A DNA stretch of 64,000 nucleotides, from the NCBI GenBank assembly GCA_963799845.1, contig CAWCYI010000006.1, positions 1,216,001 through 1,280,000 of the forward strand, in the 5' to 3' direction. A model generated the notes under the pieces. It searched no databases. It was not told where the DNA came from and saw nothing but the letters and a program-made list of their open reading frames with translations. The stretch comes from an uncultured Nitrososphaerota archaeon (GTDB taxonomy: Archaea; Thermoproteota; Nitrososphaeria; Nitrososphaerales; CADDZS01). This document shows, piece after piece, positions 1-43,541 of this stretch (position 1 is its first letter; every line of letters starts with the position of its first letter). A program made the position numbers and the translations under genes.

Positions 1-530
1 AAATTGTAAGCAATCAATTCATTAGTGTCCCAGCCGTCATAGAGCTTAGGCGCGGAAGATTCAAGAGACCGTTCAGCATCGTTGATAGCCTCTAGCGGTT
101 CATAATCTACGACTATTTTTTCGAGGGCGTCTTCAGCCAGATATCTGTCGGTCGCAAGAACAACTGCAACCGCTTCTCCGGTAAAGTACACCTTGTCAAC
201 TGCAAGCATAAATACGTCTTTTTTCTTCATCCAAGGGAGAGTCACAGACAGCGGAAGCGGTTTCGTTGCTCCGGCAATGTCCCGACCACTAAGGGCAAGA
301 ACCACACCGGGACTTTCCAAAGCCCTCGATAGATCTACTTTCCTGATTCTCGCGTGGGCATAATCGCTTCTAAGTATTGCCGCATGCAACATCCCTGAAA
401 ATTTTATGTCGTCCACGAAGACTCCGTGTCCAGACACCAGAACCGCATCCTCTCGCCTCTTCAGCGGCTTACCGACGAACTTCTTCCCCCTAGTGATTTC
501 AAGAGGTCTTTCAAGAACCGTACTGCTCAA
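1..530 (-). CDS. Xanthine dehydrogenase/CoxL-family molybdopterin-binding large subunit, N-terminal part (runs off window edge)
   Basis: Manual translation from TTG at 530: MSSTVLERPLEITRGKKFVGKPLKRREDAVLVSGHGVFVDDIKFSGMLHAAILRSDYAHARI...VDKVYFTGEAVAVVLATDRYLAEDALEKIVVDYEPL; classic XDH/CoxL N-terminus. Not in the ORF track. Confidence 0.9.
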   Translation of the reverse strand, partial: MSSTVLERPLEITRGKKFVGKPLKRREDAVLVSGHGVFVDDIKFSGMLHAAILRSDYAHARIRKVDLSRALESPGVVLALSGRDIAGATKPLPLSVTLPWMKKKDVFMLAVDKVYFTGEAVAVVLATDRYLAEDALEKIVVDYEPLEAINDAERSLESSAPKLYDGWDTNELIAYN

Positions 531-589
531 AATCGATTCAGCTCACTCTGAAATCGAATTTCAATCCTAGGTTAAGACGATATAGAGAC

Positions 590-1060
590 TCAGAGATGGC
601 CTTTGCCAAAATTCCAGCTGAGGATTTCAAAGTCATTGTAAGGTTTGACCCTGACGAATTTCCGGTTGGAAAAATCTTGAACCGGGGGCCTATTCGTCAG
701 CATCTTGTATTTGTCTGTCATCGAAGTTATGATTTGGTCCATCGTTTCTCTTTCTTCGACAAAACTCGCATCTCCTTGAATAATCGTCCCGACCAGGTCG
801 TCGTAGGAGTAACCAGTGTCAACAACTCCGCATACGTTAGGATTCCGCTCAATGTGCTGGAGTATCACGGATTCTGGATTCTCGTCAAAAAATATGGAGT
901 CACCCAACCTAACAAACTGAGTCGGCAGATTCCAAATCTGCTCCTTCGAATCCAGAGTTGCGAGTCTGAGCCAAATCTGAGAGTCTAGGAAATCTCTTGC
1001 TTGTTCGGGACTTAGCGCAATTTTGGAATAGTTCCTTCTTCTCTTGATAACTTCTGACAC
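590..1060 (-). CDS. Pyridoxamine 5'-phosphate oxidase (PPOX/split-barrel) family protein
   Basis: LRLATLD...HIERNPNVCGVVDTG.SY.DL.G..IQG and C-terminal SWNFGK, typical of PPOX-class flavin/F420 proteins. Confidence 0.75.
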   Translation of the reverse strand: MSEVIKRRRNYSKIALSPEQARDFLDSQIWLRLATLDSKEQIWNLPTQFVRLGDSIFFDENPESVILQHIERNPNVCGVVDTGYSYDDLVGTIIQGDASFVEERETMDQIITSMTDKYKMLTNRPPVQDFSNRKFVRVKPYNDFEILSWNFGKGHL

Positions 1061-1094
1061 GATTAAACTGACCCCTAATTATTGTATTTAGATG

Positions 1095-2492
1095 TTAAGA
1101 CGCGTTAATGAAGTGACACATAGCTTGGATCGCCCGGAGAGCTCTCCTTGGACTAGAATAAACCGGTACTCGAGAACCTTCCAGCTCAGCTAGCCATTTC
1201 TCCTTCACACTCCCTCCCTGAAGTACGAGGAAAACCGGTTTTCCGTTCGAGACTAGCTCGTCATAGATATTCCGTATCTCCGGAAAATCAGAGTTGGCGA
1301 CAGCCAAATCTATCATTAAGAGAGAGTCAACATTGGGATCGTCAATCACGGCCTGCATCGTTTTCCTTCTAATCTCTTTCCCCGAAGTAAGGGCAAATCC
1401 GATATCGAGTGGATTTCCTATTCTTTGATCTGGAGGAATCTGTTTTTTCAAAAACTCGATAGTTTCGCGTGTGAACGTGGGGAATTCTAGTTTGAATTCG
1501 TCTGCTGCATCAGCGGAAAGGGTTCCGTTTGCACCGCTCATAGTCACGACACCGATCTTTCTTCCCCTCGGAAAAGGCTGGAATGATATTGCTTTTGAGA
1601 TGTCGAAGAATTCTTCGATGTCAATAACAGGAATGATGCCCATTTGTATTAGGTAATTATCGTCGAATCTTGGGTCCTGTCCAAATGACCCGGTATGGGC
1701 ACGAGTCGACAGCCTGCCCATTTCTGTTTTGCCGCCCCGCAAAAACACTATAGGTTTTTGTTCTTTCTGAAGACGCCGAGCCAGCTCGAATAACTCCTGT
1801 GGTCTCTTTATCGATTCTAGATAAATTTGGATCGCCTTAACATGTGAAAGTGACCCGGCATATTCTATGAAGTCGACTTCGTCATAATCGGCCTTGTTTC
1901 CAAGACTAACGCTCAGATCGTAGCCGAGGCGCTGGTATTTTCGCGACATTATCTCGTCCATGTACGCACCTGCGAAGATGCCAGTTTGACCCCCGATAGC
2001 AAGATCTCCTCCAGTCCAGCTGTCAAAGTGGTTTATGCTTGCAACTAGGCTCTTCGGGAATGAAACAAATCCCGTAGTGTTCGGACCCAAGAGTCTGATT
2101 CCCAACGAGCGACACTTTTCGAGGATTTCTTGTTCGAGTTCAGCCCCTTTATCCGATGCTTCAGAGAATCCTGCTGATATGATCACGATCGCTTTCACAC
2201 CTTTCCGCCTACAATCGTCCAGCATCGGAAGAACGAGGCTTCCCGCGATCGCGAAAAATACGACATCGACATCAGATGGAATACTGCTGATCGAATCGTA
2301 ACATTCTAGGTCGAGAATCTCTTTGTATTTTGGATTGACGGAGAAGATGCCGCCTTTGTACCCATGAGATTTCATCGAGTCAATCAGAGTGAAACCAGGC
2401 CGGTCAGGATTTGGACTCGCACCGACGACTGCGACAGAATTCGCTTCGAAGATTTCCTTCAATTCGATTTCACTTCGTGTAGCCTGTCCCAA
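1095..2492 (-). CDS. ADP-forming acyl-CoA synthetase alpha subunit (CoA-binding protein)
   Basis: SVAVVGAS, VNPK, SAGFSE, LLGPNTTG, LGNKAD, phospho-His motif AHTGS, NPLDI. Confidence 0.9.
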   Translation of the reverse strand: MGQATRSEIELKEIFEANSVAVVGASPNPDRPGFTLIDSMKSHGYKGGIFSVNPKYKEILDLECYDSISSIPSDVDVVFFAIAGSLVLPMLDDCRRKGVKAIVIISAGFSEASDKGAELEQEILEKCRSLGIRLLGPNTTGFVSFPKSLVASINHFDSWTGGDLAIGGQTGIFAGAYMDEIMSRKYQRLGYDLSVSLGNKADYDEVDFIEYAGSLSHVKAIQIYLESIKRPQELFELARRLQKEQKPIVFLRGGKTEMGRLSTRAHTGSFGQDPRFDDNYLIQMGIIPVIDIEEFFDISKAISFQPFPRGRKIGVVTMSGANGTLSADAADEFKLEFPTFTRETIEFLKKQIPPDQRIGNPLDIGFALTSGKEIRRKTMQAVIDDPNVDSLLMIDLAVANSDFPEIRNIYDELVSNGKPVFLVLQGGSVKEKWLAELEGSRVPVYSSPRRALRAIQAMCHFINAS

Positions 2493-4058
2493 GTACCGTC
2501 TGTGTTGGTCGTGTACTCGCTGCGCACAATTTTCTTGGTTTGTTCTGTTTTTTTCAGTTCATCTACAAACTGGATAAATCTGGGAATCATAAATTTTGGA
2601 AATCTGGATTCACACCAGTTGATCAAATCCCCGGGAGAAAGCTCCGCGCCGGACTTTCGCGAAACAACTAACTTAATGTCATCGCCACCCATTTCAGGGT
2701 TCGATATTCCCACTGCTATGCATTCTTCAACTAGTGGATGTGTAGACAAAACGGTCTCGATCTGAAGGGGAGAAATATTTTCTCCGCGATATCGAATGAA
2801 AGTCTCCACTTTCCCCACATAATGAAAGTAGCCTTCCTCATCAACTCGAACAATGTCACCGCTCTTGAACCAGCCATCTTCCGTGAATCTGGCAAGACTC
2901 TTGGGAACGTCATTATAGTACAGGTCCTCAGGTTGCTTCTTTGCAAACTCGGACTTTAGGCGTGAAACCAGCTGGCCAGGTTTTCCGGGTTCAGTCTCGA
3001 CCCCATTATCATCCAGGATTCTGACCCTCAGCTGAAGGATACTTTAATCCAATTGTTCCTGCACGATTCGTTGGCATTGTGCCCGCTCCAAAAAAAGCTC
3101 CCTCTGTCTGCGCGTAGTGCTCGTAGATCTTGACTCCAAACCGCGCTTCAAAATTTAGCCACGCCTCTTCGCTTGGAACTCCCGCTCCAACAGACAAACG
3201 TGCATTGTGAGCTTTATCGTTCTCTGACACAGGCTGCTTCAAAAGCAGTGGAATTGAAGCACCCTGATGAACGAGGACTGTTGCATCGTAGCGCCTCACA
3301 TCATTCCAGAATTGGCTTACACTGAATCTATCCGTTATTGCGATCTTGCCACCGTTTCTCAAAGCTCCAATCACATGGACCTGTCCAAGAATATGATAAA
3401 GTGCGAAAGGGAGGTAGGTCGTATCTCCTGGGCCGAGGCCGATCGCATCCATCATCTGCTGAACGTAGGTCTCTTGATGCAATGGAAGGATTCCATAATT
3501 TTCATACACTACTCCCTTTGGTGCTCCGGTTGTGCCACTCGTGTAAATGATGCAGCACGGATCGGAATAGCTGAGTTCTATTGTCGGTATAGAATCATGC
3601 CCCTCAGAGATCAGAGAAAGAATCGAGCTATCCGCTTCATTCTCCTCGTGGTCTAGTAAGTAATGTTGAATTCTCTTGACACTGGCAGTTTGCGAGGCCA
3701 AGAATTCCCTTTCGTAGTTATTGTGAACGAATGCCAGTACGGTTTCGCTCTGAGAAAGCAGATAAGATAACTCGTGGGCTTTTAGCTGACAGTTGATTGG
3801 GACGCAAATCCCACCAGCCTTCCAAATCCCGAATTCGCATATCAGATACTCTAAATTTGAGTGGGAAATGATAGCCACCTTATCGCCTTTCTTTATTCCC
3901 ATCTTTGCGAGTGAACTTGAAAGGCGATTAGACTTGCTCTCCAGTTCGGCGAGACTGATAGCGCCATCTTTGTAAAAGGCAAATGACTGGGACCCGTTTT
4001 CCTCGGCTCGGATCCGAAGGAGCGAGCCGGGAGAAGTACATTCTTCTTCGGATTTCAA
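2459..4058 (-). pseudogene. AMP-forming acyl-CoA ligase (CaiC-like) interrupted by one +1 frameshift
   Basis: YTSGTTGAPKG and YAQTE in the 5' ORF. Removing one G from GAGGGTC (3025-3027) gives continuous AEVRILDDNG...GWFKSGDIVRVDEEGYFHYVGKVETFIRYRGENIS, joining ORF 2459..2818. May be an assembly error. Confidence 0.85.
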
Positions 4059-4125
4059 TTTCGAATCTAGACTGAGCTTAGCAACTGACGGAGAATGAAT
4101 TTTGATGAGCTGGTTGATTCTCGTT

Positions 4126-4653
4126 TTATTTCGTATTTATTCCCCTTATTGACTTGCCCTTTTCAAAATGAAATGCAAACATTTCGAGCGGTTCAACTTC
4201 TATCTTCACTCGCGGAAAGGGCTGCCGATGATAGTAAGTGTAGGACGATCTTAATCCGGCAAAGCTCTTTTCATTGATTGCATCGTACACCTTCCACTCT
4301 AGATCCTTATCCTGAATGACCTTGGCTTTTCCCTTCATCATGACACCCCTGGAATCAAAAAACGGTTTTCCACTGTTCCAGACCAGTGTTATCTTTCCAT
4401 TTCGTTGAATATTCTTGATTTTAACTGAAGCGGCATCAGCATCAAAATAGATTCTATCGCCGAGCCTGATGAAGTTAGAAGGAATATTGTGTAGTTTTCC
4501 ATTGAGTGAAATCGTTGCTGCTCTCATGAAAAACTGGTTGTCAATGTAGCGAAAGACCTGTTCCATCTTGACTGGTTCAAGTGCATCCTCTGTCCAATTC
4601 ATGACCTTGTATGCCTCGCAGATGGCTTTATCTGTTTTTTTCAAAGGAATCAA
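4126..4653 (-). CDS. PPOX/split-barrel family protein, paralog of 590..1060
   Basis: AATISLNGKLHNIPSNFIRLGDRIYF vs LATLD...NLPTQFVRLGDSIFF; KIKNIQRN; C-terminal FHFEKG. Confidence 0.75.
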   Translation of the reverse strand: MIPLKKTDKAICEAYKVMNWTEDALEPVKMEQVFRYIDNQFFMRAATISLNGKLHNIPSNFIRLGDRIYFDADAASVKIKNIQRNGKITLVWNSGKPFFDSRGVMMKGKAKVIQDKDLEWKVYDAINEKSFAGLRSSYTYYHRQPFPRVKIEVEPLEMFAFHFEKGKSIRGINTK

Positions 4654-4704
4654 ATTTTCAAACTATCGTAATATACTCCTCTCTCACTTTGAAATCGGAT
4701 TCCA

Positions 4705-5160
4705 ATGCACACGCGCAATCTCAGATCCTACCTAAAGATTCTAGATTCTTAGGGTTTGCTACTTCATATAGAAAAGAGAGTTGACCCAAAATTTGAACTC
4801 TCTGCTGTCGTAAAGGCGGTTGAAAACCTAGACAAGGTGATTATCTTTCACAATTTGAAAAGAAGTGAGTTTGATGTTGCGGCAAACATCGTAGTTTCGA
4901 AAAAAATGTTTTCATTGCTACTCAATACCTCCGAGGCTGATACAGTTCAAGAATATGTAAGGCGGGCAGAGAAGCTGATCAAACCAACGATGGTTTCGAC
5001 CGGTCCGGCAAAAGATCACATTTCCCGCTAACGCAGAAATAATCCTAGAAGTGAAGTCCCTAGCCAATGTCAGAGAAGAAGAGAGACATTATGGAGACAT
5101 GGTCCAATTTTACACCCCTCAATCAAAGAATCACGTATTTTGGCTCAAGGGTATCTGTCA
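4705..5160 (+). pseudogene. UbiD-family decarboxylase remnant (paralog of 42183..43541)
   Basis: MHTRNLRSYLKILDS*GLLLHIEKRVDPKFELSAVVK...; then jumps to PANAEIILEVKSLANVREEERHYGDMVQFYTPQSKNHVFWLK. In-frame stop, large internal deletion, truncated. Confidence 0.85.
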
Positions 5161-5209
5161 GCTCCTTTTGGGAGAGAAGAGCCTGTCATGAATAGACGAC
5201 AACACTATC

Positions 5210-5375
5210 CCGGTGGAACTAACGGTTCTTCAAAAAATGCAAAACGTGGAACTGTTCAATAAAGTGTACAAGGCGTACATCAAAGAGCCCAGATCCTGGA
5301 CGAAGCCTTGTCAGCGCGAAAGAACACCTTCACACACCTCTTGCGGGATGACTGTGACCGCACTGGTAATTTGAA
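5210..5375 (+). pseudogene. Possible RidA/YjgF-family C-terminal remnant
   Basis: PVELTVLQKMQNVELFNKVYKAYIKEP resembles the RidA FNEVYAEYFxEP segment; no start, degenerate. Confidence 0.35.
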
Positions 5376-5539
5376 TCCTACAAGTCGAGTATTTTTATGC
5401 ATGAATATAGGCCGCAACAAGTATCATAGGTCAAAGAAACCGGTGTTGCCGGTACTGTTACATCTTCGGTTGATGATGAATGGTAAGTCATCGCCAATAA
5501 CAGATAAAGTGACAGATCCGCGTAAACACACTTCCTGAC

Positions 5540-6550
5540 CTACTTAAAGGCGGGAATTATTTCTCTGCCGAATTGTTCTACGACTCCTTTGACTTCTTGA
5601 CCTACTCCATGTTCTCCTGTGAGTATAGCTATTTGATGAACTCCCGTTTTTGAAAGATCTTTCAGTTGTTCTATGCATTGGTCCGTCGTACCTGCAATTC
5701 CGAACTTTAGGATAAATTCCTCCGAAAGCATCTTCGTTATTTGTGTCATTTTAACAAAGTCGTGTTTGTTCAATGACGCCTCTTTGATGAGTTTGAGATC
5801 TTTTGTGCTGCTGTCGGCTATTTCTGCCAAGAAAGGATAGAGCGCGGGACTCCACATTGCAAGAGGCCTAACGGAGTCAACCGCGGCCTTCCTATCCTTG
5901 GCAAGACCGCAGAATGTCCAATTGACAAGTTTGATCTTTTGTGGATCACGTTTAGATTTTTTTGCACCTTCCTCGATCTTTTTCTTGGCGAACTCGATAC
6001 ACTTTGAATTAACACCCGTTGAAACTATTACACCGTCAGCAATTTCGCCCGAAATCTCGAGCATTTTTGGACCTGTCGCTGCAACATACAATGGTACCCG
6101 TCTTATTCTTCCAAATGAGAGTTTGGCAGGCCCTTTTGCTCCCGAAAACGTAACTGTTTCCCCTTCTAGCAGTTTCTTAATTTGAAGCGCCTTCTCCAAG
6201 AAGAAACCCGAAGGAACCGGAGCTCTGAGGCCAAGCTCAGCGAGATTCCATGGGCCTCCTGCTGAAATCCCGAGGATAGCTCTTCCGTTTGACAACTCAT
6301 CTATCGAATTGATAGCATTTGACGTGATTCCGACATGCCTACTGAGGAGATTCGTCACGCCAGTTCCGATTATTAATTTGTGAGAATTTAGGGCGCACAG
6401 AGTAAGATAGGGATAGCAGTCTCTTCCCTGCAGTCCTGAATCCGTAATCCAAACGGAATCAAACCCCGCCCTTTCAGTCGTCTTAATTAGGTCGATGAAC
6501 TCAGCGGGTGGCCTCTCGGTACTATGCGACATTGCGAATTCGACGGTCAT
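5540..6550 (-). CDS. LLM-class (luciferase-like, Mer-like) flavin/F420-dependent oxidoreductase
   Basis: ERAGFDSVWITD, IGTGVTN, DELSNGRAILGISAG, PLYVAATGPKMLEISGEIADG. Confidence 0.9.
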   Translation of the reverse strand: MTVEFAMSHSTERPPAEFIDLIKTTERAGFDSVWITDSGLQGRDCYPYLTLCALNSHKLIIGTGVTNLLSRHVGITSNAINSIDELSNGRAILGISAGGPWNLAELGLRAPVPSGFFLEKALQIKKLLEGETVTFSGAKGPAKLSFGRIRRVPLYVAATGPKMLEISGEIADGVIVSTGVNSKCIEFAKKKIEEGAKKSKRDPQKIKLVNWTFCGLAKDRKAAVDSVRPLAMWSPALYPFLAEIADSSTKDLKLIKEASLNKHDFVKMTQITKMLSEEFILKFGIAGTTDQCIEQLKDLSKTGVHQIAILTGEHGVGQEVKGVVEQFGREIIPAFK

Positions 6551-6587
6551 TAGATATTCTAATCCTTGTGTAGGAACATGTTTTCCG

Positions 6588-6956
6588 TCAACTTTTCGCT
6601 ATCACTCGATTGAACTCTGTGAGATTCACAATATTGTTGTCAGGATCAAGATATGCGGCGCTGTATCCCCATGGTTGATTCGTAGGCCTTTCGAGAACTT
6701 CTACTCGCTCAGCGATCAAGCGCTTATTATCTTCATCTAGGTTCTGCGAGGAAAATCCAAATTCTGAATGAGAAGGGGATTCTCCGTCTTTCAATCTAAA
6801 AATAATGAAATGTGTATAGGGGTTGTCCCACGAAAATTCATAATGGGATGGTTCATCACTCCGAAGAGGGATTCCTAGAATATCTCGATAAAAGTGCACT
6901 GATTTTTCAAGTTCGGCAACATGAATTGCGATGTAGTTGATTCTCTTGCTGCTCAA
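6588..6956 (-). CDS. VOC/glyoxalase family protein
   Basis: IAIHVAELEKSVHFYRDILG; PTNQPWGYSAAYLDPDNN. Confidence 0.85.
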   Translation of the reverse strand: MSSKRINYIAIHVAELEKSVHFYRDILGIPLRSDEPSHYEFSWDNPYTHFIIFRLKDGESPSHSEFGFSSQNLDEDNKRLIAERVEVLERPTNQPWGYSAAYLDPDNNIVNLTEFNRVIAKS

Positions 6957-7040
6957 CTTTTGGATTCTACTGCCAATTCGGAAAAATAACCATATAATTA
7001 GAATGTTGATAGAAGTTAGATTTTTTATGGTTGTCAGATG

Positions 7041-7748
7041 TTATTGCTTGCTTTCCGTTTCCCCACTCACTCGACTCATCGTGGCTTTTAAGGGACTCGC
7101 ACGGTTAGCAAAAAGGTAAACGAAAAGTGCGAATAAGAAGAAAAGTGGAACTAAGATAAGATCATTCAGAGAAATCAGGATTTCGCTAAACCAGAACGCT
7201 GAGAAAGATAGTAATAAAGCTGACACGACAACCTTCATGTTTGCTTGCTTTACCTTCCTCACTTGATTCCGTAAAACAAAAGTTGAGACAATAACAATCA
7301 CTACGCCTGTGATTATTCCGATTATTGTGGAAGAGAAATTATTCGGAATTAGGCCTACCAACACAATTGCCGCCTCAAAGGCTTCTATGGCACCAACAGA
7401 AAATCCTGTGTACATCAATCCTTTTTCAAACTCTTCCGCCTTAAAGCCTCCAGAGCGCGACTTGAGTACTGATCGTCTCGCACTGCGGGCTAATCTAATT
7501 CCGAAGTAGAGGAGCAGTAGGCCACCGATGAACTTTACATAAAAAAAAGGAAGGAGCGAAATCGCAGATCCTATCAGTATTGTGGGCACAAGGACAACGA
7601 CAACGCCGAGGGCAACGTAGAAGAAGGCTAATCTGTTTCCTGATTCGCCATATAGGGCCAAACCGACTGCTGCAGCTTCTACCATCTCCAAAGTAGTGAT
7701 TCCTGTAGCAGCCAAGAAAATGGCAGAATCGAAAACCAGAGGCCTCAT
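7041..7748 (-). CDS. Membrane protein, COG4280/TMEM165-GDT1-like (putative cation transporter)
   Basis: Two-repeat TM topology with paired LEMVEA / IEAFEA motifs. Confidence 0.6.
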   Translation of the reverse strand: MRPLVFDSAIFLAATGITTLEMVEAAAVGLALYGESGNRLAFFYVALGVVVVLVPTILIGSAISLLPFFYVKFIGGLLLLYFGIRLARSARRSVLKSRSGGFKAEEFEKGLMYTGFSVGAIEAFEAAIVLVGLIPNNFSSTIIGIITGVVIVIVSTFVLRNQVRKVKQANMKVVVSALLLSFSAFWFSEILISLNDLILVPLFFLFALFVYLFANRASPLKATMSRVSGETESKQ

Positions 7749-7892
7749 CTCCTGACATTAATCTAATTTCGTATGAATCCAATCATAATTCTTGACTAGG
7801 CTTAGCGTGCGATATTTCTCTCATCGGCCGACCTTTCCAAGTTAAATTGAGAATATCGCGGCATGCACTGACTACATAGTCTAGATTCGTTC

Positions 7893-8633
7893 TTAGAGTC
7901 TCACATTTTCCAATGAAGAATAGGACTCTTCCCTCACACCGTTCCGGTGAGCCACAGCAATACAATTGTCCAATAGATCAGAAGAAACGCTCAGTATGTC
8001 CTGCACAGATAAACTCGATCCGAGTTTAGTCATCAAATTTGCGTAGTTTTCCGGAAGGATGTTGAACATCTTTGCCTCTCCGAGTGAGTCGTATGAGAGG
8101 TAATACTTTCGATTGAGAAGAGCAACGAGTTGGGCCGCCAACGACTGGAATTCAATGCTGAAGAGAAGCGAGTCTGCTAACTTACCGTAACTTAATACCG
8201 CTTTCATATGATTCACATACTCACGTAACAGAACAATAATTACCCCGGACTGCTTTGCATACGCCTCATTGGGTATGGAAGAGTCGAACTTCTGGAATTC
8301 TTTTAGAGCATTCTGATCACCATAGATCACTTTAGCGGTGTGAATGTGCATCATCCAGCTGAACCATTCACTGTTCGACGGATCTTTGAAGATATTTTGA
8401 GCCTCTCCTTCAGTTATGAAAAAAGGTTCCGCAATTATGTCTTTGTAAACGAATTTTCGAGATTCGCCAATTTTGTCCTTGCTTGCAATAAGCATATCCA
8501 GATCAGCAAAATCACCATCTTTGTTGTTAGCAGTCATCCCTGCAACTGCTACAAATAGAATCTGATTATGATACTGTTCGACGGCTCTCTTGGCAATACT
8601 TTCAGCGAGCGCCCATCTTTCATCATGCTTCAA
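7893..8633 (-). CDS. Kanamycin nucleotidyltransferase (ANT(4'))-like nucleotidyltransferase
   Basis: MKHDERWALAESIAKRAVEQY...VAVAGMTANNKDGDFADLDM resembles the KNTase N-terminus. Probable TTG start at 8633, with TTTATATA about 40 nt upstream (ORF track extends to 8816). Confidence 0.7.
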   Translation of the reverse strand: MKHDERWALAESIAKRAVEQYHNQILFVAVAGMTANNKDGDFADLDMLIASKDKIGESRKFVYKDIIAEPFFITEGEAQNIFKDPSNSEWFSWMMHIHTAKVIYGDQNALKEFQKFDSSIPNEAYAKQSGVIIVLLREYVNHMKAVLSYGKLADSLLFSIEFQSLAAQLVALLNRKYYLSYDSLGEAKMFNILPENYANLMTKLGSSLSVQDILSVSSDLLDNCIAVAHRNGVREESYSSLENVRL

Positions 8634-8748
8634 TTCAAAAATTCCTTCGCCGTTCGCAAATTCAATAGAGTATATAAATTTCAAATATTGTGAAACGGAA
8701 TATTTTCTCCAGTTTGGCGACTTACGCAATTCGACTTTCAGAATGCGA

Positions 8749-8985
8749 TCAAGAATCCTTGGAATGTTGATTGTTGATCTGATGTTTTTCGGATGTCTCA
8801 ACCAGGATCCCTCCAACTGCCATAGCTAAAATTGATATTCCCGTCAATCCCAAAAAAAGTTCCAAATTTTCGCTCGCGGATGCCAAAAAGTAAATTGATG
8901 CGGCGAATCCTAATAGCATGACTACTTTACCAATTAGGAAAGTACTTGGCCACAAAACTCGCTTAATCACCTGATTTAGTCGCAA
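8749..8985 (-). CDS. Small two-TM membrane protein
   Basis: Two hydrophobic segments in 78 aa, co-oriented with neighbours. Confidence 0.45.
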   Translation of the reverse strand: MRLNQVIKRVLWPSTFLIGKVVMLLGFAASIYFLASASENLELFLGLTGISILAMAVGGILVETSEKHQINNQHSKDS

Positions 8986-9045
8986 AAGCTACTAAAATTA
9001 ATCACAGAAAGCTCGTTGCTGCTATCGACAGAATCATATTCACCC

Positions 9046-10396: not shown

Positions 10397-10403
10397 CCGT
10401 AAA

Positions 10404-17788: not shown

Positions 17789-17795
17789 ACAAGAG

Positions 17796-34600: not shown

Positions 34601-34654
34601 AAAAAGTCATTAACTTTGAAGAAGTGAGAGACGAATGGGGGACGGACTAGTGTT

Positions 34655-36232: not shown

Positions 36233-36247
36233 GCGAAGAAATAGGGC

Positions 36248-37835
36248 ATGTCAAAACCAAGGGTAGCTGATTTTTTCCGGGCCAAATGCTACGGTTGCTA
36301 ACTCTCCACCCCTCGTAACAAGTAACAAAGCTAGACTTCCTGGAGAGAGATTAATTCCTGGTCGTTTCGATCATCTTGTTCCTCAGATACTTTATGAAAA
36401 AGTTAAGGTAAAAATTAAGAAATTTAGCGCGCATCCACTTGAGCAGGACGCGGCATCTGTTTATGCCGATGATAGAAAGGACTACTACGAGGTCGAACTC
36501 TCTCCCGACGATGGTCCCTACCTCCTTCCGTATATGGCAAGAAGATCGGATGGTACGAAGAACGGTACTCCCTTTGAGGCTGTCGACATGTGGAATCCAT
36601 TATTGGGGTTTGGCGGAAGGCAATTCTTCTATCCCGACGCTTCGCGAATTTTTGACGATATCAATAGGACGATTTCTGGAAGGGACGCAAATGGGGAGGC
36701 TAATGTTCTAGACCGACTGGCCGATTACGAATTCATCAGAGTTCTTCCTCCAGGTGGATTCACTGCCCGAGGTGAGATCTCGGGAGTACACTATTTCCCG
36801 TACAGACCAGAACCTATCGCAAAAATAATTAGAGCGGGAGACTTGGCGACCGCTGCAAATATAGTTCAAAGATCGATCTCGACCAAAGAATTCGAGGGCG
36901 GAATCTGGCTAGATGGAAGCCCGCAACTTGAGGAATCTCTCTACTGGCTATCGCTAATGATAGACACCGAGCTTCCTTTGGTAGGCGTTGCTGCCCAAAG
37001 GCCCCACGGCGAGCTAGCAAACGATGGCGATCGAAACATTGTCGATGCGGTAGAATACGTCGTGTCTGGCAAGGGAAAAGGCCTTGGAGGAGTTGGCGTC
37101 CAAGATCAAGTAATTTACGCAGCTCGGGAATTCAAAAAGGCAGATGCGCGGCCGGGAAATTACAAGGCAACTGGCGGCCACGGTGGAATACTGGGGTCGG
37201 TGAAGGCAGGGATAACAATCTGGTATCGCCCTAACTATAAACACACTTCAACGTCCGAGGTGAATTTGACGAGACTGCCAGACAAAGTGGTTTTTCAAGA
37301 TAAATTTGAAAGTTCTGACATGGTTTCGATTCAGATAAAAGACTCAGAAGGGTACCTTTTGAATTCAACTATTCCACGCGTCAGTATAATCAAGTATGCC
37401 AGCTATTCCCAAGATGATGAAAAGGGAGACCCGGATCAGGAGATAGAAATCATGGCGAGAATCTCGAAGATCGAGTCTGATAGATCAAATCCTCAGGCAT
37501 CGAAACTTCACGGCATTGTCTACGAAGGTCTATCTCCCTATGCGGTTGGTTCTGTCTCACAATTAAGAGCGCTGTGGATCGCCGCGTTCTCCGGGATCCC
37601 TGTAGTCAGAGTAGGCAGAAGTGATCCAGGAGGCCGAGTAATCACGGATCCTAATGATCCAACAATCGAAGGAAGTAACCTAGACTCGAACAAGGCACGA
37701 TTGCTCTTGATATCTTCCATGCTTAAGCTCGGCCGACTGCCGAGAGCAAGAGATCCGAGGAATCCTACAAATGAAGAGAGGAGAGCTGTGTCTGAGAAAG
37801 TCGCTGAATTCCAAGAAATATTTGAAACGCATTGA
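36248..37835 (+). pseudogene. Asparaginase-fold protein with +1 frameshift near the start (main ORF 36534..37835)
   Basis: MSKPRVA/xFSGPNATVANSPPLVTSNKAR continues in frame to 37835 after removing one base at about 36270; LEESLYWLSL, AQRPHG, DGDRNI, SNLDSNKARLLL, FQEIF. Confidence 0.75.
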
Positions 37836-37927
37836 CTAGATGCAAGACTTATTTCCAAAAAAGCTCTGGCCCTCATTTGCTCCTCTTTTGTTAGGGCATT
37901 ATTGTCGAAAAAATTTTCCCAAATTGA

Positions 37928-39016
37928 TAGGAGTTACGCGGTTGACCCAAGAAGATAGATTGGGTGTGCAATGTAACTCCTTATCGCATCTCTGACGATT
38001 CTCGCCTTCGCTTCGTACCAGCTTATCCCGGTCATCAATCTGCACAATTCTAGACGTATGAACGCCCTTATTGACATGTGGATGTGATTCAGAATGGATG
38101 TCGCCTTCCTGACCTGAGCCCTCTCAATGCCACAACACTGCTTGACTCCTCTGTGGTACTCCTCGATTCCCCATCCTTGGTCAGAGAGTTCATCTCTCTT
38201 TTCCTCATTCATCCCAACGTCATCGGTAGCCCAGTGTTCAATGTCTCCTTTCTTGGAGGCTGTCCTGAACACCCTGACCATTCCGAATCCCATGAGATGA
38301 ACCGTGGTTCCCTCAGGCGGGATCTCCACGTCCTTGATTGGTTTGTTTCCTTTTTTTCTGCCCGTTGGATTGACGAGCCTGTTCTCCTTGAGGCGGCAGA
38401 AGAAATGCCACCCGAGCTCCCTTGCGATGAGCTTCAGATTTTCCATGCTCGAGTACCAGCTGTCAAAGAGGACGTATTTTGGTTCCATCCCTCTCTGCTT
38501 TGCAACCAACAACATGTCCTGGAAGTGATCGTTCTTGGTGAGACCGTCTTTTGACGCATTGTAGAGTCTAAAGTCACATGGAATGAGGGCGTTACCATCG
38601 CTCCATAGTGTTGTGATGAGATTTATCCCCTTCACCACACTGTGGTGTTTTCCGCTCCAGTGGTACGTGACGTAATCCATCTTCTCCGCGTACGGTTTGT
38701 CCAGAGTTGAATCATCGACTATCGGTACTCCTCCCGCAGTAACGGCGATGATCCTCTTCGCCTCATCCCAGAGCGCTTCTGTATCCGCAGGCAGTCTCTC
38801 CAGAAGGCGGGTGAAGCTATCGTGTGCTGGCGGCGTGACTCCTGCATCATCATCAGGCTGACATCTAGCAGCTTCGGTGCAAGCGAATGATTTCTGGGAT
38901 GCTATCAGGAAGTCTATGTAGTCATTGTCATCGCATTTTGGAGGGTTCATGCAGCGTCTGATGAACCAGAGAAACAATCCTGGCCAAATTCTTTTCGGCC
39001 AAATGCGTAACTCCTA
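37928..39016 (-). mobile_element. IS701-family insertion sequence
   Basis: TIRs TAGGAGTTACGC (37928) / GCGTAACTCCTA (ends 39016), flanking direct repeat ATTGA (or AATTGAT with 1-nt shorter ends), single transposase. Confidence 0.9.
37934..38950 (-). CDS. IS701-family DDE transposase
   Basis: MNPPKC..DYIDFLIAS, HDSFTRLL, VDDSTLDKPY, FDSWYSS, WGIEEYHRGVKQCCG; stop lies inside the TIR. Confidence 0.92.
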   Translation of the reverse strand: MNPPKCDDNDYIDFLIASQKSFACTEAARCQPDDDAGVTPPAHDSFTRLLERLPADTEALWDEAKRIIAVTAGGVPIVDDSTLDKPYAEKMDYVTYHWSGKHHSVVKGINLITTLWSDGNALIPCDFRLYNASKDGLTKNDHFQDMLLVAKQRGMEPKYVLFDSWYSSMENLKLIARELGWHFFCRLKENRLVNPTGRKKGNKPIKDVEIPPEGTTVHLMGFGMVRVFRTASKKGDIEHWATDDVGMNEEKRDELSDQGWGIEEYHRGVKQCCGIERAQVRKATSILNHIHMSIRAFIRLELCRLMTGISWYEAKARIVRDAIRSYIAHPIYLLGSTA

Positions 39017-39152
39017 ATTGATTTAGATTTCTAAATATCAAGAAATGCGTTCTGTCAACTCGCACAGAGGACGATGATTCGATTGGCTCTGTCCACGAAC
39101 CGAGTATACTCTTATATCGATGGTACTGGCTGGTTCTCAGCGAATTTTGAAT

Positions 39153-40250
39153 ATGAGCGGAGTAATCGGAGGTTACCCTGGGCATCATACATCCAGTCCA
39201 TTCATCTTGCCTCTGGTGCTTGAGGCGACTAGAAATTGTACCATGAATTTCTGCCAAGTAAAACGCGGTGAAAGAGTGTTGATTGTATCAGAATACGATA
39301 CCGATCCGCTCGTCACATCTGCCTTTGCTGCATCCGCCGCAGAAAGCGGAGCAGAAGTTGCAATGATCACTATTCCTCCTCTCGCCGTCGGCGGATGGGT
39401 GAGAAATAGCCCGAACGATATGCTCGTGGGAGCTTTCGAAAATTCCGACGTTGTGATCGCCTGTACGTACTTTGAATTTGCCCACAACGAGAGAACTTTC
39501 TTCAGCAAGATATTCGGAGGAAAAAGCAGAGTCTGTTCTGTCCTGATGGGTTCAACGCCTGGCTCGCTGATCTCAGCGGGTCGATTTCCTATAGCACTTT
39601 ATTGTGAGATTGGAGAAAGAGCCATGAAGGTTTTGAACACTGCAAGCACCATTCGGTACACTACAGCGTCAGGGACCGATGTTACTTTTGAGGGTCCTCA
39701 GGGAATCTCCTATGGAAAGCCCCTCGAGCCGGGAAACTGGGCAATTTTCCCGCCGATGGGGATAAACCTCTATCCGAAGAATTCAAACGGAGTGCTAGTG
39801 CCTGATGAGACAGCACTGACCGGAAAGCTTTCTTCCCCGATCAAGTTTGTGATTGAAAACAACTTTGTTGTGAAGATAGAGGGGGCATCTGGGGCAGAGC
39901 GGGCCGCTATAGAGGCTTTCTGCAATGGGAAATACTACGTCAGGCACACCGTCATCGGGTTAAATCCCAAAGTGAGAATGGTTAACGCACCCGAGTTTGA
40001 AAGGGAAAGGGCAGCGGGAACAACTTACTTGGGATTGGACGGAACCGGCCTATCAGGACAAATTGACAGAACAAAGCCGGGGTTCTCTCACCTCGACATG
40101 ATCTTTGATACTCCAACAGTATACGTCGACGGAGAGCTTTTCGTCAAAGACCGAAGATTGCTGTTACTAGAAGATCGGGAGCTCTTAGAGATAGCGAAAA
40201 AATACGGAGACCCGAAGAAGGTGTTAGCGCAGAATCCTCTTCTCTTCTAG
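39153..40250 (+). CDS. M29/NicX-fold protein, paralog of 16676..17788
   Basis: High visible similarity (YFEFAHNE, ISAGRFPI, HTVIGLNPKVRMVNAP, KPGFSHLDM, YGDPKKVLAQNP); ATG at 39153. Confidence 0.7.
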   Translation: MSGVIGGYPGHHTSSPFILPLVLEATRNCTMNFCQVKRGERVLIVSEYDTDPLVTSAFAASAAESGAEVAMITIPPLAVGGWVRNSPNDMLVGAFENSDVVIACTYFEFAHNERTFFSKIFGGKSRVCSVLMGSTPGSLISAGRFPIALYCEIGERAMKVLNTASTIRYTTASGTDVTFEGPQGISYGKPLEPGNWAIFPPMGINLYPKNSNGVLVPDETALTGKLSSPIKFVIENNFVVKIEGASGAERAAIEAFCNGKYYVRHTVIGLNPKVRMVNAPEFERERAAGTTYLGLDGTGLSGQIDRTKPGFSHLDMIFDTPTVYVDGELFVKDRRLLLLEDRELLEIAKKYGDPKKVLAQNPLLF

Positions 40251-40341
40251 ATGGATCGCTATTTGGCATAGATTCCCCATTTGTCGGTTCAGTAACAATA
40301 CCTTAATTTGACGTTCCGGCACGACAGAATTCGGCCTTGGA

Positions 40342-41460
40342 ATGCTGAACCAAGATTCACTAAATCTATCAGAAATAATTGATCATCTCATTACAGTCCC
40401 AGTTTTTTCCGGGTCGTCCCTCGCCTCCCGACCTGTTGTATTGGACTTGTATGAAGCTGCCAGAGGAAAATTTGGAAGACCGCTTTGCTTTGATGCAACG
40501 GAAAAAATCCTGCTCTCTTCAGAAAAGGAAGCGGTCAAGACTGTCATAATCACAACCGGGTTTATCGTTCCTCCATGGTTGGAGGCAGAGACTGACGGCC
40601 CCGTCGGTGCTGTAACGCTCGCCAGATCGTTGAATCTTGCTTTCGATGCGGTTCCAGTTCTAGTTACCGAGAAACATGCAGTTCAGAAAACAAAATCGCT
40701 GCTCGAAGCGACGGGATTCAGAGTTGGTGATATCGAAAATGCGAAGAAACCACTTGGTAAACGTACTGGACTCGTTGTTGGCTTCACAACCGATGTTGGA
40801 CAAGCTGTTAGAGAGTCAGAAGATCTGATATCGAAAACATCTCCGTTTAGCATAATTTCAATTGAGAAAGCATCTCCGAACAGGGTTGGAGTTTTCCATA
40901 GCGGCGTCGGAGTGGATGTTTCAAAGCTTTCCGCGAAGGTCGACAAGCTCGTTGAACATGCAAAGAATACTGGCATTCTGACAGTGGGGATCGGGGATGC
41001 TGGGAACGAAATAGGAATGGGTTGCATTGAGAAAACCGTCAGAGAAATCCTCCCCACGGGGTCTGATTGTGGTTGTCCTTGTCACCAAGGGGTGGCATCT
41101 GCTGTAGCGACGGACGGATTGATGGTAACCGGAACGTCGAATTGGGGGGCGTCGGCAATCGAGGCCCTATTGGCATTTCATTATAAGGTTCCAGAGCTTC
41201 TGCATGATGGCGCCACTGAAGTGAACTTGATCAGAAGGTCCGCCGAGCTCGGGTTCATCGACCCAGCTTCGGGATTTGCAGATCCGGGCGTGGACGCGAT
41301 ACCAGCGAAAATGCACGGTGCTCTGATCGAGTTACTGAATTTCATCACAAACTCTAGGATGAAAGATTCCTACTATATCAAAAAGTACAGGGAATATACG
41401 AGAGACAAAAAGAAACTGGCCGAGGAAATTGAGAAAGCTGGCGAAAGTCAAGCAATCTAG
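40342..41460 (+). CDS. DUF4392 / D-glutamate cyclase-like protein
   Basis: TTGF, ETDGPVGA, IEK, GVFH, GIGDAGNEIGMG, CGCPC, SNWGA. Confidence 0.85.
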   Translation: MLNQDSLNLSEIIDHLITVPVFSGSSLASRPVVLDLYEAARGKFGRPLCFDATEKILLSSEKEAVKTVIITTGFIVPPWLEAETDGPVGAVTLARSLNLAFDAVPVLVTEKHAVQKTKSLLEATGFRVGDIENAKKPLGKRTGLVVGFTTDVGQAVRESEDLISKTSPFSIISIEKASPNRVGVFHSGVGVDVSKLSAKVDKLVEHAKNTGILTVGIGDAGNEIGMGCIEKTVREILPTGSDCGCPCHQGVASAVATDGLMVTGTSNWGASAIEALLAFHYKVPELLHDGATEVNLIRRSAELGFIDPASGFADPGVDAIPAKMHGALIELLNFITNSRMKDSYYIKKYREYTRDKKKLAEEIEKAGESQAI

Positions 41461-42182
41461 TATCTTGCGAGAAGAGTGCCGAGTCCGCTTACACTTCCCT
41501 TTCTCTTCAAAGCCTTAAGCGATCGCCACAGACTCGCCGCGTTGCTCGTGACGACCGGCTTCCCCAGTTCTTCCTCAATTCTTTGAATTACTGTCATCGT
41601 CTTTAGGTCTGTACAACTCAAAAAAATTCCCTCCGCTTCCGGGCTATCTACAGCCCGTGCTAGTTTCACCGTCGTCTCTGGCGGTTCTGCATGAAGCGGC
41701 GCTCCCTTTGTGTACCCAAGGCCTTTGATTTTTGTAACTTCCAATCCATTTTCTTCTAGAAACCGTACTTCCGCGTCGTTGAGCTCCTTCGAGTAGGGTG
41801 TTCCAACCGCTATCTTTCGAAGCCCGAGCGTACTGAATGCATCGAGAACCGCCCCCGCAGTAGTAATCACTGGAACAGATGTCGCTTCCTTCATTCGATG
41901 CTCTAATTTTTCCTCCCATTTCTTTCCTCCTATCAAACTCCCCGTAGTGCAGGCATAGAGAACAGCGCTAACATCCGCGGAGTCGAGCATTCTGCAAGCA
42001 TTTTCAGTAGCGTCTGCCATGTCAACCAGATCTTTTCTCGTTCCGCTTCTGAGTAAGAGTCTTGTCGCGTGTATGGACACGTCTTCGGGAGCGACCGCAT
42101 TGAATTCTGGTTCTATCGTTACGTTAAGAGAAGGGACTATGATGCCAAGTCGGTACTTGGTGTTGTATTTTGGATTTTCCAA
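41457..42182 (-). CDS. Asp/Glu racemase superfamily, maleate cis-trans isomerase/arylmalonate decarboxylase-like
   Basis: RLGIIVPSLNVTIEPEF, YACTTGS, TPY, FLSCTDL, LGKPVVTSN, GLGTLL; both Cys present. Confidence 0.88.
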   Translation of the reverse strand: MENPKYNTKYRLGIIVPSLNVTIEPEFNAVAPEDVSIHATRLLLRSGTRKDLVDMADATENACRMLDSADVSAVLYACTTGSLIGGKKWEEKLEHRMKEATSVPVITTAGAVLDAFSTLGLRKIAVGTPYSKELNDAEVRFLEENGLEVTKIKGLGYTKGAPLHAEPPETTVKLARAVDSPEAEGIFLSCTDLKTMTVIQRIEEELGKPVVTSNAASLWRSLKALKRKGSVSGLGTLLARY

Positions 42183-43541
42183 TTATTTCCCCGAAGTTTT
42201 CGCTTTTGCTTCTGAAACGTATTCTTTTAGATCGATTTCGTCTTGTCCTGGAACAAACTTTCGAACCTTTTCTTCCGAAGCATCCAGAGGTGCTGTTGCG
42301 TCGATCCCTACTTTAGACTGGTGTAAGTGATGGAGGTCCCTCGGGAATCCTTGAGCTTCTGCCACGATGAAGATTCCCTTGTCGGGCCTGCTTCTTGTTA
42401 CCATTGCCCACCAGACATCGTTTACGTCGTAGACATCCACATCCTCATCCACGACGACGCAATATTTTAGCCAAGAATAGGCACCAAATGCGCACATGGC
42501 GGCATTCTTCGGTTCGCCCTCGAACCTCTTCTTGATAGAAACAACGCACGACAATAACGAAGGCGTGTTGGAAACTGATCTGACGTCGTAACCCGCATAA
42601 TTCAAAGCTCGGTAGACCTTTGCCTCCCTAGATATGGCAAGGAGGTGAATGTCTTCCTTGCTTCCAGCTTGAATTGTGTGATAGATTGCGTTGTTTCGGT
42701 GGGTTATCGCCTTCAGCCGGAAGACATGATTTTTCGTTTGGGGGATGTAGAATTGAAAAACGTCGCCATACGGCCCCTCTTCCTCTCTGACGTTTGCCAA
42801 GACCTCGCCCTCAAGAACGATCTCTGCATTGGCCGGGACGTTGACATCAATCGTCTCGCACTTTACTGTCTCCACCGCTTCACCGGCCAGAGCGCCAGCG
42901 AGCTCAAAGTGATCAGTTCCATAGGGAAGGGTCGTGGAAGCTGCTATCATTTCAAAGGGATGAGACCCAATCACCACAGCAACTTCGAGATTACGTCCTA
43001 ATTTTTCTGCTTTGGACTGTATCACCCCTAGATGTTGAGGCGGCATCATTCTTATACCGAATTTCTTCGGTTCCTTGAATTGCATCCTGTTAAACGACAT
43101 GTTTGTGTATCCAGTTTCTGGGTCTTTGGCGATGGCCATCCCCGCCGTGATGAACGGTGCCACATCTCCGACCGCGTGTGTAACATGGGGGAGGACCCCT
43201 TCATCGGCATCGTCGCCAACGAATATCCTTTCCTTGACGGGGCCTGAGGATACCATTCTGGGCTTTACCAAATTTTCCGATCTTTTCACGAAATACGGAA
43301 CTGTCTCGGCCTCGGATGTTCCCAAAAGGAGTGCGAGCATCTTCCTCGAAATAACAAGGTTAGCGGTGACCTCAAAGTTCCCTCCCCTGACTTCGTGAAA
43401 CAAAACAGCCTTTCCTTCCTTTTCCGTCTGCTTTACCACGGCGGAAAGCTCGAACTTTGGATCAACTTCCTTTTCAATATGAAAGAGTAGGTCGTGCTTT
43501 TCGAGTAGATCCAGGTAGCTTCTAAGATCTCTTTTCAACAT
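42183..43541 (-). CDS. UbiD-family (prFMN) decarboxylase
   Basis: DLRSYL, DVAPFITAG, SFNRM, VPANAEIVLEG, EGPYGD, VVVDEDVD, KVGIDAT. Confidence 0.93.
   Translation of the reverse strand: MLKRDLRSYLDLLEKHDLLFHIEKEVDPKFELSAVVKQTEKEGKAVLFHEVRGGNFEVTANLVISRKMLALLLGTSEAETVPYFVKRSENLVKPRMVSSGPVKERIFVGDDADEGVLPHVTHAVGDVAPFITAGMAIAKDPETGYTNMSFNRMQFKEPKKFGIRMMPPQHLGVIQSKAEKLGRNLEVAVVIGSHPFEMIAASTTLPYGTDHFELAGALAGEAVETVKCETIDVNVPANAEIVLEGEVLANVREEEGPYGDVFQFYIPQTKNHVFRLKAITHRNNAIYHTIQAGSKEDIHLLAISREAKVYRALNYAGYDVRSVSNTPSLLSCVVSIKKRFEGEPKNAAMCAFGAYSWLKYCVVVDEDVDVYDVNDVWWAMVTRSRPDKGIFIVAEAQGFPRDLHHLHQSKVGIDATAPLDASEEKVRKFVPGQDEIDLKEYVSEAKAKTSGK

Follow-up and report, generated by a model that had tools for sequence, protein, structure and literature searches.

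NicX-like metalloenzymes beside UbiD decarboxylases and hydroxylases in archaea and bacteria, and the catabolic island that carries them in a Nitrososphaerales archaeon

Degradation of pyridines and other N-heterocycles is known from bacteria and fungi, and in bacteria cyclic imides are metabolised through maleamate by an imidase together with a half-amidase. In the hmf (furoate) pathway a CoA ligase works with a dehydrogenase of the xanthine dehydrogenase (XDH) type, which hydroxylates the acyl-CoA. The nic pathway of Pseudomonas putida KT2440 is made up of NicAB, NicC, NicX, NicD, NicF and NicE, and the pic cluster of Alcaligenes faecalis JQ135 comprises PicA, PicB, PicC and PicD-G (10.1101/530550). 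Our literature search turned up neither an archaeal route of the maleamate type nor a UbiD decarboxylase linked to dihydroxypyridine or picolinate catabolism. Here we analysed a window of 64,000 nucleotides from an uncultured Nitrososphaerota archaeon (contig CAWCYI010000006.1, hereafter C6; C6:1216001-1280000 of a 4.6-Mb, 9-contig genome, G000, 86.7% complete), in which an initial annotation of positions 1-43541 had proposed an N-heteroaromatic degradation island formed by dispersed relatives of the maleamate pathway. The families it had named were found in place by Pfam and NCBIfam or, in the case of the two NicX-like proteins that are our main subject (copy 1, 16676-17788; copy 2, 39120-40250; both on the plus strand), by profile and fold. 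We favour, with less than even confidence, the explanation that this NicX-like subfamily works with HmfF-like UbiD decarboxylases dependent on prenylated FMN (prFMN) and with Mo or Rieske hydroxylases in the breakdown of (N-)heteroaromatic or phenolic acids.

The likeness to the nic pathway lies in the NicX fold, with its His/His/Asp iron site and His105, and in the presence in the region of an alpha/beta hydrolase, an isochorismatase-type amidase, a two-Cys protein and XDH-type hydroxylases. Unlike the nic genes, those of the archaeon are scattered over 30 kb in separate modules and include no NicC, and the partners of the NicX-like orthologues are UbiD, Rieske and molybdenum bis(pyranopterin guanine dinucleotide) (Mo-bisPGD) enzymes, not NicD, NicF or NicE. 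The two NicX-like proteins (370 residues, 67% identical to each other) had no match in the copy of Pfam used, which omits PF26233, the family recorded for their homologues, and a single-sequence search of the PDB with copy 2 gave no match either. A profile of 21 family sequences had a sole match in the PDB, NicX of P. putida (7CN3, E 2e-21), over positions 17-349 of 365. The AlphaFold model of copy 2 (predicted local distance difference test 89.3) also found NicX 7CN3 first in Foldseek (E 1.6e-21, template modelling score 0.64/0.69, 18% identity), followed by M29 aminopeptidases (E 1e-14 to 1e-12) and then by CgnB and CgnE. The structural study of NicX names His265, His318, Asp320 and Ser302 as Fe ligands and His105 as the residue that guides the substrate, with Glu177 and His189 hydrogen-bonding the ring N and O (N1/O1) of 2,5-dihydroxypyridine and setting specificity (PMC7910607). 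In the HMMER alignment of the profile to the PDB entry, His265, His318, Asp320 and His105 align with H276, H324, D326 and H122; in the 21 family sequences all four are invariant or nearly so, H324 and D326 without exception and H276 in at least 90%.

The subfamily is rare. A family search of 5.8 billion proteins returned 74 at E ≤0.001, with identities of 80-95% for thaumarchaeal metagenome sequences, about 55-60% for gammaproteobacterial and about 38-41% for actinobacterial ones. The archaeon's family, with 12 other genomes searched, yielded no close orthologue, a single orthologue and no further one was found among 301 genomes of the bacterial order to which G403 belongs, and a class sample of 401 genomes held only distant, M29-like relatives. 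Distant archaeal homologues of this NicX/M29-like kind that stand beside ABC ATPases (25-30% identity; 12 regions) were set aside as a different subfamily. A three-gene unit of GntR regulator, MFS transporter and NicX-like gene was seen both in the Streptomyces plasmid NZ_CP107961.1 (L058) and in a gammaproteobacterial genome (L001:6590-11098).

The surroundings of the orthologues carry most of our argument. With a narrower family alignment, 4 loci in genomes and 14 in metagenomes were obtained, and the eight loci with usable flanks, L001-L004 from four gammaproteobacterial metagenome-assembled genomes and L025-L028 from metagenome contigs, were examined with Pfam and by tblastn with the window proteins. 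At all eight, at least one of UbiD, XDH-type, Rieske or Mo-bisPGD enzymes is encoded within 10 kb of the NicX-like gene. A UbiD gene lies 27-391 nt away at three loci (L002, L003 and L004), that is in three of the four gammaproteobacterial genomes, and 8.3 kb away at a fourth (L001). An XDH-type large subunit is encoded directly upstream on the same strand at L027 and L028 and nearby at L003 and L004; a Rieske oxygenase alpha subunit is present at L025, L028 and L002, and a Psr/Phs-like Mo-bisPGD enzyme at L026, L003 and L004 (L026:11149-15727; L003:13150-15554; L004:12460-15186). The four bacterial genomes (2.6-5.0 Mb) have 4-14 UbiD matches each, from which a UbiD neighbour within 0.5 kb would by arithmetic arise by chance in less than 1% per genome, although the genomes are related, so that the adjacency does not count as four independent events.

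The three adjacent bacterial UbiDs are mutual orthologues (730-826 bits), and their best match in the archaeon is encoded at C6:1208969-1210345, 5.7 kb left of the window, with 61.4-61.7% identity; against the two UbiDs of the window they reach at most 273 bits. A second UbiD type (C6:1296586-1297947) is also common to the bacteria (45-47% identity). Additionally, the asparaginase-like protein of the window (36270-37835, plus strand; Pfam Asparaginase) has 44% identity to a protein encoded 3 kb away from the NicX-like gene of L001. Judged by these sequence comparisons, the NicX-like gene and two UbiD types, and less regularly the Mo-bisPGD and asparaginase-like genes, are common to the two domains, as a compact set in the bacteria and spread over about 90 kb in the archaeon, which supports a functional link between NicX-like proteins, UbiDs and hydroxylases. 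The earlier proposal that prFMN decarboxylation replaces the flavin monooxygenase NicC thus gains the backing of conserved synteny, because the orthologue (61%) of the UbiD that adjoins the NicX-like gene in three of four gammaproteobacterial genomes lies in the archaeon's island. The absence of NicC from the window was confirmed: none of the 57 open reading frames (ORFs) scanned against Pfam (39 in 1-43541, which were also scanned against NCBIfam, and 18 further right) matched FAD_binding_3, and the genome's two full-length matches to this family are far from the island.

Both UbiDs of the window (UbiD 1, 34655-36232, plus strand; UbiD 2, 42183-43541, minus strand) carry the Pfam domains UbiD_N, UbiD and UbiD_C, all three domains being present in UbiD 1, and score 291 and 335 with TIGR00148 (cut-off 245). 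By far their nearest solved relative is 6H6V (2.9e-61 for UbiD 1 and 4.5e-88 for UbiD 2, for which AroY follows at 2e-44), the furandicarboxylate decarboxylase HmfF (PMC8988006). The comparison with HmfF/HmfG (UbiD/UbiX) and with HudA and InD extends to a putative UbiX, the prFMN synthase, in the genome: its sole good match (TIGR00421, 180 bits) is at C6:1383358-1383901, 103 kb off, in two frames with one stop. Unlike HmfF, the eight archaeal paralogues, about 27-38% identical, stand beside ring-cleavage and amide-hydrolysing genes, and UbiX is split in the assembly.

A decarboxylase of another family may be encoded in the plus-strand Amidohydro_2 gene of ACMSD/PicC fold (14605-15183 and 15197-15517; Pfam matches on both halves), whose best matches in the PDB, IDCase, LigW and ACMSD, are decarboxylases with weak scores (7.6e-9); the gene probably belongs to the ACMSD-type decarboxylase branch. 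The pic pathway has the same order of hydroxylation, non-oxidative decarboxylation and NicX-type ring opening (10.1101/530550), and at locus 1 of the window (13561-17788) genes of PicE, PicC and PicD fold lie inside 4.2 kb. Unlike the pic cluster, locus 1 has a DUF4392 gene between the Amidohydro_2 and NicX-like genes, and the neighbouring decarboxylase of the relatives is a prFMN-dependent UbiD, of another family than PicC.

Genes that could act after ring opening are found in the same stretch. The isochorismatase-type Cys amidase (31970-32641, plus strand) matches in the PDB N-carbamoylsarcosine amidase (26st, 2.1e-38, 135 bits), 4L07 (2.5e-36, 129 bits), which we take to be the maleamate amidase of P. 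putida S16, and NicF (3OT4/3UAO, 5.8e-27; 3UAO 98 bits). Motifs with Asp, Lys and Cys that correspond to the known triad (PMC5806882) are present in its sequence. Divergent from its gene is that of a cyclic amidohydrolase (30481-31905, minus strand), which is of the allantoinase/dihydropyrimidinase/hydantoinase type (three NCBIfam models at 243-265 bits, all under their cut-offs), and the pair is flanked by a Liv/Urt-type ABC transporter (25576-30523, plus strand) with a binding protein, two permeases and two ATPases. The two-Cys protein of the Amdase/maleate-isomerase family (41457-42182, minus strand), whose gene is abutted on the same strand by UbiD 2, finds as its best PDB match the maleate isomerase 4FQ7 of P. 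putida S16 (1e-26, 97 bits), with both catalytic Cys aligned. It also scores 90 bits against a Sulfolobus Amdase-like protein and 83 against arylmalonate decarboxylase, and the NCBIfam models for EutA and arylmalonate decarboxylase both match under their cut-offs. The genome has a second, split homologue at C4:1640145-1640833, in two pieces that are 32-37% identical to the copy in the window, by which single-copy status is ruled out.

Two genes encode DUF4392 (GLUCM-like_C) proteins, copy 1 at 15567-16541 (minus strand; Pfam 7.8e-43), divergent from NicX-like copy 1, and copy 2 at 40342-41460 (plus strand; Pfam 5.2e-60), 91 nt downstream of NicX-like copy 2. They are 28% identical to each other, and copy 1 has a CxCPC motif. 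The human C14orf159 protein is presumably the D-glutamate cyclase. DUF4392, which is the C-terminal domain of D-glutamate cyclase, also occurs in C14orf159 (PMC5132392), and the solved relative of the window proteins is TON_0340 (copy 2, 4.4e-22), a weak phosphatase with a dimetal site of six carboxylates (PMC5132392). The invariant acidic residues of the archaeal subfamily fit such a site. The archaeal proteins exceed TON_0340 in length by about 100 residues, their genes pair with a two-Cys or a NicX-like gene, and they have, unlike TON_0340, an invariant CxCxC insertion (C243, C245, C247), a gap in the alignment to TON_0340, that may form an extra metal site. A NicX-like gene adjoins DUF4392 in three places, two of them in the window and the third in L025, and a two-Cys gene does so in six. 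A complex prediction for NicX-like copy 2 with DUF4392 copy 2, alignments given, scored 0.00 and speaks neither way.

The stretch around copy 2 has been interrupted by an insertion sequence of the IS701 family (37927-39016, minus strand; transposase 37934-38977, NCBIfam 390 bits), which now parts the asparaginase-like gene from NicX-like copy 2. The element is 1090 bp long and has nine copies in the genome, which define its boundaries; at 99.5-99.8% identity they indicate recent activity. Until the element inserted, the genes of 31970-41460, for isochorismatase, FAD oxidase (FAD_binding_4/FAD-oxidase_C, GlcD-like; 32716-34176, plus strand), UbiD, asparaginase-like, NicX-like and DUF4392 proteins, formed an unbroken run on one strand, and no other single observation argues as well for a common pathway in the archaeon.

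The window forms the central part of a catabolic region of about 145 kb (C6:1.196-1.34 Mb), which is built as a mosaic of small modules and not as a single operon. Six of the genome's eight UbiD genes fall inside 124 kb (C6:1.209-1.333 Mb) of the 4.6 Mb, and both NicX-like genes, both DUF4392 genes and the genome's only full-length maleate-isomerase-like gene fall within 27 kb, a clustering that is more than chance. XDH-type large subunits have 19 matches genome-wide. In the 80-kb flanks, Pfam revealed further XDH sets, HyuA/HyuB, two CN_hydrolases, two M24 creatinase-like genes, a second isochorismatase beside a UbiD, a second DUF1989 beside two UbiDs, aldehyde dehydrogenases and aminotransferases. 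The archaeal source read from the sequence was borne out, as the nearest protein homologues bear the names Nitrososphaerales or Thaumarchaeota. Of 40 other genomes of the order, 11 had the archaeal amoA family, and it was found in none of the four genomes of the host's family, the host included (completeness 70-94%), on account of which the archaeon is probably not an ammonia oxidiser.

On the explanation that we tentatively favour, a carboxylated (N-)heteroaromatic or phenolic acid would be taken up and hydroxylated, and would then lose its carboxyl group in an oxygen-independent step catalysed by UbiD or the ACMSD-type enzyme encoded at 14605. The resulting diol would be opened by the Fe(II) NicX-like enzyme, presumed here to act as a dioxygenase, and the DUF4392 dimetal enzyme, the isochorismatase-type amidase and the two-Cys isomerase could take a maleamate-type product to fumarate and ammonia. 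This lower, maleamate-like half is less well supported than the core of NicX-like protein, UbiD and hydroxylases. If the scheme were true, mineralisation of N-heterocycles to ammonia would be a capacity of soil Nitrososphaerales without amoA; the NicX-like and UbiD proteins, as conserved neighbours, are a directly testable enzyme pair. A bolder version, which we consider rather unlikely, is a module shared by soil Gammaproteobacteria and Nitrososphaerales that do not oxidise ammonia, in which UbiDs feed hydroxylated carboxylates of pyridine or related heteroaromatics to a new NicX-family dioxygenase and, in the archaeon, DUF4392 acts as an (N-formyl)maleamate hydrolase of a new kind that passes maleate to the two-Cys isomerase, its conserved partner. 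It would be the first archaeal route of pyridine-ring degradation and would give DUF4392 a physiological role.

Several observations weigh against a ring-opening pathway of this kind. In the NicX-like proteins, unlike in NicX itself, Ser302 is replaced by an invariant glycine (G305, with an invariant D307 two residues further), and the positions of Glu177, His189 and Leu104 are taken by Ser, Ile and Ala, although at about 18% identity a local shift of the alignment is possible and would affect the mapping of Ser302, Glu177 and His189. Because these four residues are not kept, the substrate is probably held otherwise than in NicX, and because the Fe ligands and His105 are kept while Ser302 and the dihydroxypyridine-binding residues are not, the proteins appear to form a separate subfamily of the NicX family, and not to be 2,5-dihydroxypyridine dioxygenases. 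Of the proposed N-heteroaromatic island, the aromatic or heteroaromatic surroundings of the NicX-like gene held at 8/8 loci, while the pyridine substrate is weakened by the missing dihydroxypyridine-binding residues. Synteny is also imperfect. Between the NicX-like genes and the archaeal orthologue of the bacterial neighbour UbiD lie 22-45 kb, no UbiD is encoded within 15 kb of copy 1, and two actinobacterial records have a NicX-like gene without UbiD or hydroxylase partners, the one from Streptomyces having a GntR regulator and an MFS transporter as its sole companions. The NicD-, NicF- and NicE-like genes that the initial annotation had placed in the NicX route are hardly ever neighbours of the orthologues: the maleate-isomerase-like (NicE) and alpha/beta hydrolase (NicD) genes were found at 0/8 loci and the isochorismatase (NicF) at 1/8. 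In the four gammaproteobacterial genomes the isochorismatases are located away from the NicX-like gene, the window query found no maleate-isomerase-like gene, and PF14336 was not found, a control query being likewise silent. Conserved co-occurrence, one of the checks suggested for the initial annotation, therefore holds for the NicX-like gene with UbiD and hydroxylases, while the maleamate gene set falls into separate modules over 13561-42182.

It is well conceivable, though we doubt it, that there is no common pathway, and that a hydrolase-rich accessory island contains modules acting apart on cyclic amides, ureides, hydantoins, imides or amino-acid derivatives, the likeness to NicD, NicF and NicE being a coincidence of very common folds. 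The amide-hydrolase-rich surroundings suit such independent cyclic-amide or ureide metabolism just as well. One unit would be the hydantoinase with the isochorismatase-type enzyme, as an amidase of carbamoyl compounds or half-amides, and the ABC transporter. N-carbamoylsarcosine amidase is the best PDB match of the isochorismatase, which is as near to it as to the maleamate amidases, and the hydantoinase/isochorismatase/Liv ABC unit is kept in the archaeal relative L026 at 67-83% identity, the cyclic amidohydrolase at 74-78% in the same divergent layout. In L026 the NicX-like gene is 5 kb from these orthologues, with the Mo-bisPGD enzyme between, a proximity that favours the common pathway. 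The unit resembles the hydantoinase process and cyclic-imide degradation in that a cyclic amidohydrolase is divergent from an amidase like N-carbamoylsarcosine amidase, with an adjoining ABC transporter and a racemase-superfamily enzyme near; it differs in having an isochorismatase-fold amidase, not a CN-hydrolase or M20 enzyme, and no model reaches its NCBIfam cut-off. A further unit would consist of DUF4392 and the two-Cys protein, for example as a racemase or isomerase on a small dicarboxylate or oxoproline-like compound. Among other Nitrososphaeria, 12 genomes have a two-Cys homologue (41-44% identity), none of them from the amoA-bearing families, and at 5 of 13 such loci DUF4392 lies within 3 kb of it, adjoining in G095, G081, G031 and G370 and 2.4 kb off in G375. 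At these five loci, within flanks of 1.7-19 kb per locus searched by tblastn with window proteins, neither NicX-like gene nor UbiD was present, and the pair adjoins SSF transporters and housekeeping genes. Elsewhere the two-Cys homologue follows a HyuB-type oxoprolinase/hydantoinase gene (G069) or an Amidohydro_2 gene (G058), or neighbours a succinate dehydrogenase/fumarate reductase flavoprotein gene (G285). The alpha/beta hydrolase, its ABC transporter and an M20 enzyme would make up the remaining unit, and the flanks of the island are rich in HyuA/HyuB, CN_hydrolases, M24, DUF1989, aminotransferases and a second isochorismatase. Separate modules leave unexplained, however, why NicX-like, UbiD, XDH and Rieske genes adjoin across domains, why six of eight UbiD genes are concentrated here, and why DUF4392 stands three times beside a NicX-like gene when the copies are only 28% identical.

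We regard it as distinctly unlikely that the NicX-like proteins are hydrolases of the M29 kind which, with DUF4392, racemase-superfamily, asparaginase-like and M20 enzymes, act on peptides, D-amino acids or lactams. The H...H.D motif is common to M29 peptidases too, which gives a hydrolase reading some probability; PepS, AmpT and AmpS are the fold matches next to NicX, and one source labels some family members aminopeptidase T. The loss of the NicX-specific Ser302, Glu177 and His189, the ABC-transporter ATPases beside the distant archaeal homologues and the Streptomyces gene with GntR and MFS alone point the same way. Yet Pfam Peptidase_M29 does not match even at E ≤1, the family profile meets NicX and no M29 structure at E ≤1, as a fold match NicX surpasses the M29 enzymes by 7 orders of magnitude, and all eight orthologue loci adjoin aromatic-catabolism hydroxylases or decarboxylases, not peptide genes. 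Still less probable, in our estimate, is a pathway for furan or phenolic acids instead of pyridines, with HmfF-like UbiDs, a CoA ligase and XDH-type acyl-CoA hydroxylation as in furoate degradation. The window UbiDs do have HmfF as nearest solved relative, an enoyl-CoA hydratase, an acyl-CoA dehydrogenase and a further CoA ligase are encoded at 21025-25183, and the XDH-type large subunit at the edge of the window is followed on its strand by AMP- and ADP-forming CoA ligases. That XDH (3-530, minus strand; N-terminus, Pfam Ald_Xan_dh_C) is complete in the genome with 801 residues (L060:326-2731), running leftwards beyond the window. Its highest scores are with the models for glyceraldehyde dehydrogenase alpha (598 bits against a cut-off of 790) and for the CoxL type; no NCBIfam model reaches its cut-off and no nicotinate-type model fits. 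Its place in one same-strand run with two CoA ligases also speaks against the nicotinate-type hydroxylase first proposed, and it looks more like an acyl-CoA hydroxylase than a nicotinate dehydrogenase. The furoate route, however, requires no ring-cleaving dioxygenase and uses no amidases, which are abundant in the island, and the HmfF bit scores of 299 and 211 indicate a family branch, not orthology.

In addition to their role in the argument, several genes bear on the quality of the assembly. Within the window the AMP-ligase gene (2459-4058) and the Amidohydro_2 gene each shift frame, the latter at 15170-15197. Comparison of positions 1-20000 with short-read contigs of two soil runs revealed exactly two indels: one base is omitted at 3029 and one at 15182, in 2/2 covering runs, which are the two break points. 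Removing the extra base gives by arithmetic 532 codons for the ligase and 303 codons for the Amidohydro_2 gene. Because the short-read contigs omit one base at each break, both genes are most likely intact and their splits single-base assembly insertions; the contigs, which restore both frames, speak against a reading as pseudogenes. Further errors of this kind are probably present in the assembly, and other split genes (UbiX, TPP enzymes, one XDH and PrpD) may be similar artefacts. In the asparaginase-like gene homology begins at about 36270, just after a stop at 36264 and 88 codons before the first ATG, GTG or TTG (36534); either its start codon is non-canonical or a further indel of the assembly conceals it.

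The remaining genes of the window complete this picture. The run with the edge XDH (590-4653, minus strand) contains a PNPOx/F420-type gene, the alpha subunit of an ADP-forming acyl-CoA synthetase, the AMP-forming acyl-CoA ligase and a second PNPOx-type gene. The minus-strand run at 9046-14472 comprises the alpha/beta hydrolase as first gene (13561-14472; GHSRG nucleophile elbow; best NCBIfam match the C-C hydrolase HsaD, 98 bits, far under cut-off), an ABC permease, a solute-binding protein and an M20 deacylase of the ArgE/DapE type (9046). Of the families that the initial annotation had listed as possible signs of ureide or pyrimidine substrates, this M20 enzyme and the cyclic amidohydrolase (30481) lie within its range, whereas DUF1989 (53193) is outside it. 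Towards the right end, a three-subunit Psr/Phs/Arr-like Mo-bisPGD oxidoreductase (alpha, FeS beta and membrane subunits; 59842-63969, minus strand) has an alpha subunit (61345-63969) with 44% identity to that of L026 and 36% to that of L004. MoeA, MobB and MobA (46439-48922), which are molybdenum cofactor genes, and an FdhD-like gene (52523-53068) are also present, and cofactor genes inside the island fit its load of molybdoenzymes.

The pair of DUF4392 and two-Cys genes is a second, independent lead on DUF4392 function; at its loci in other Nitrososphaeria (L077, L078, L079, L067 and L084) a sodium:solute symporter is often near. Three ParB_N/HTH_ParB proteins are encoded in the flanks of the island (L051:16222-18061; L052:7457-9560; L053:16923-18068); two adjoin a TrmB-type regulator, close to XDH-type genes, and one is fused to a SnoaL-like domain, and they may be island-specific regulators. 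The product of an ORF at 7893-8816 (307 residues) weakly resembles ANT(4')-type nucleotidyltransferases (E 6.6e-11, 42 bits, cut-off 350), which concerns the fold only and is no evidence of resistance. Lastly, a second transposase gene, of the DDE type, is located at 49337-50434.

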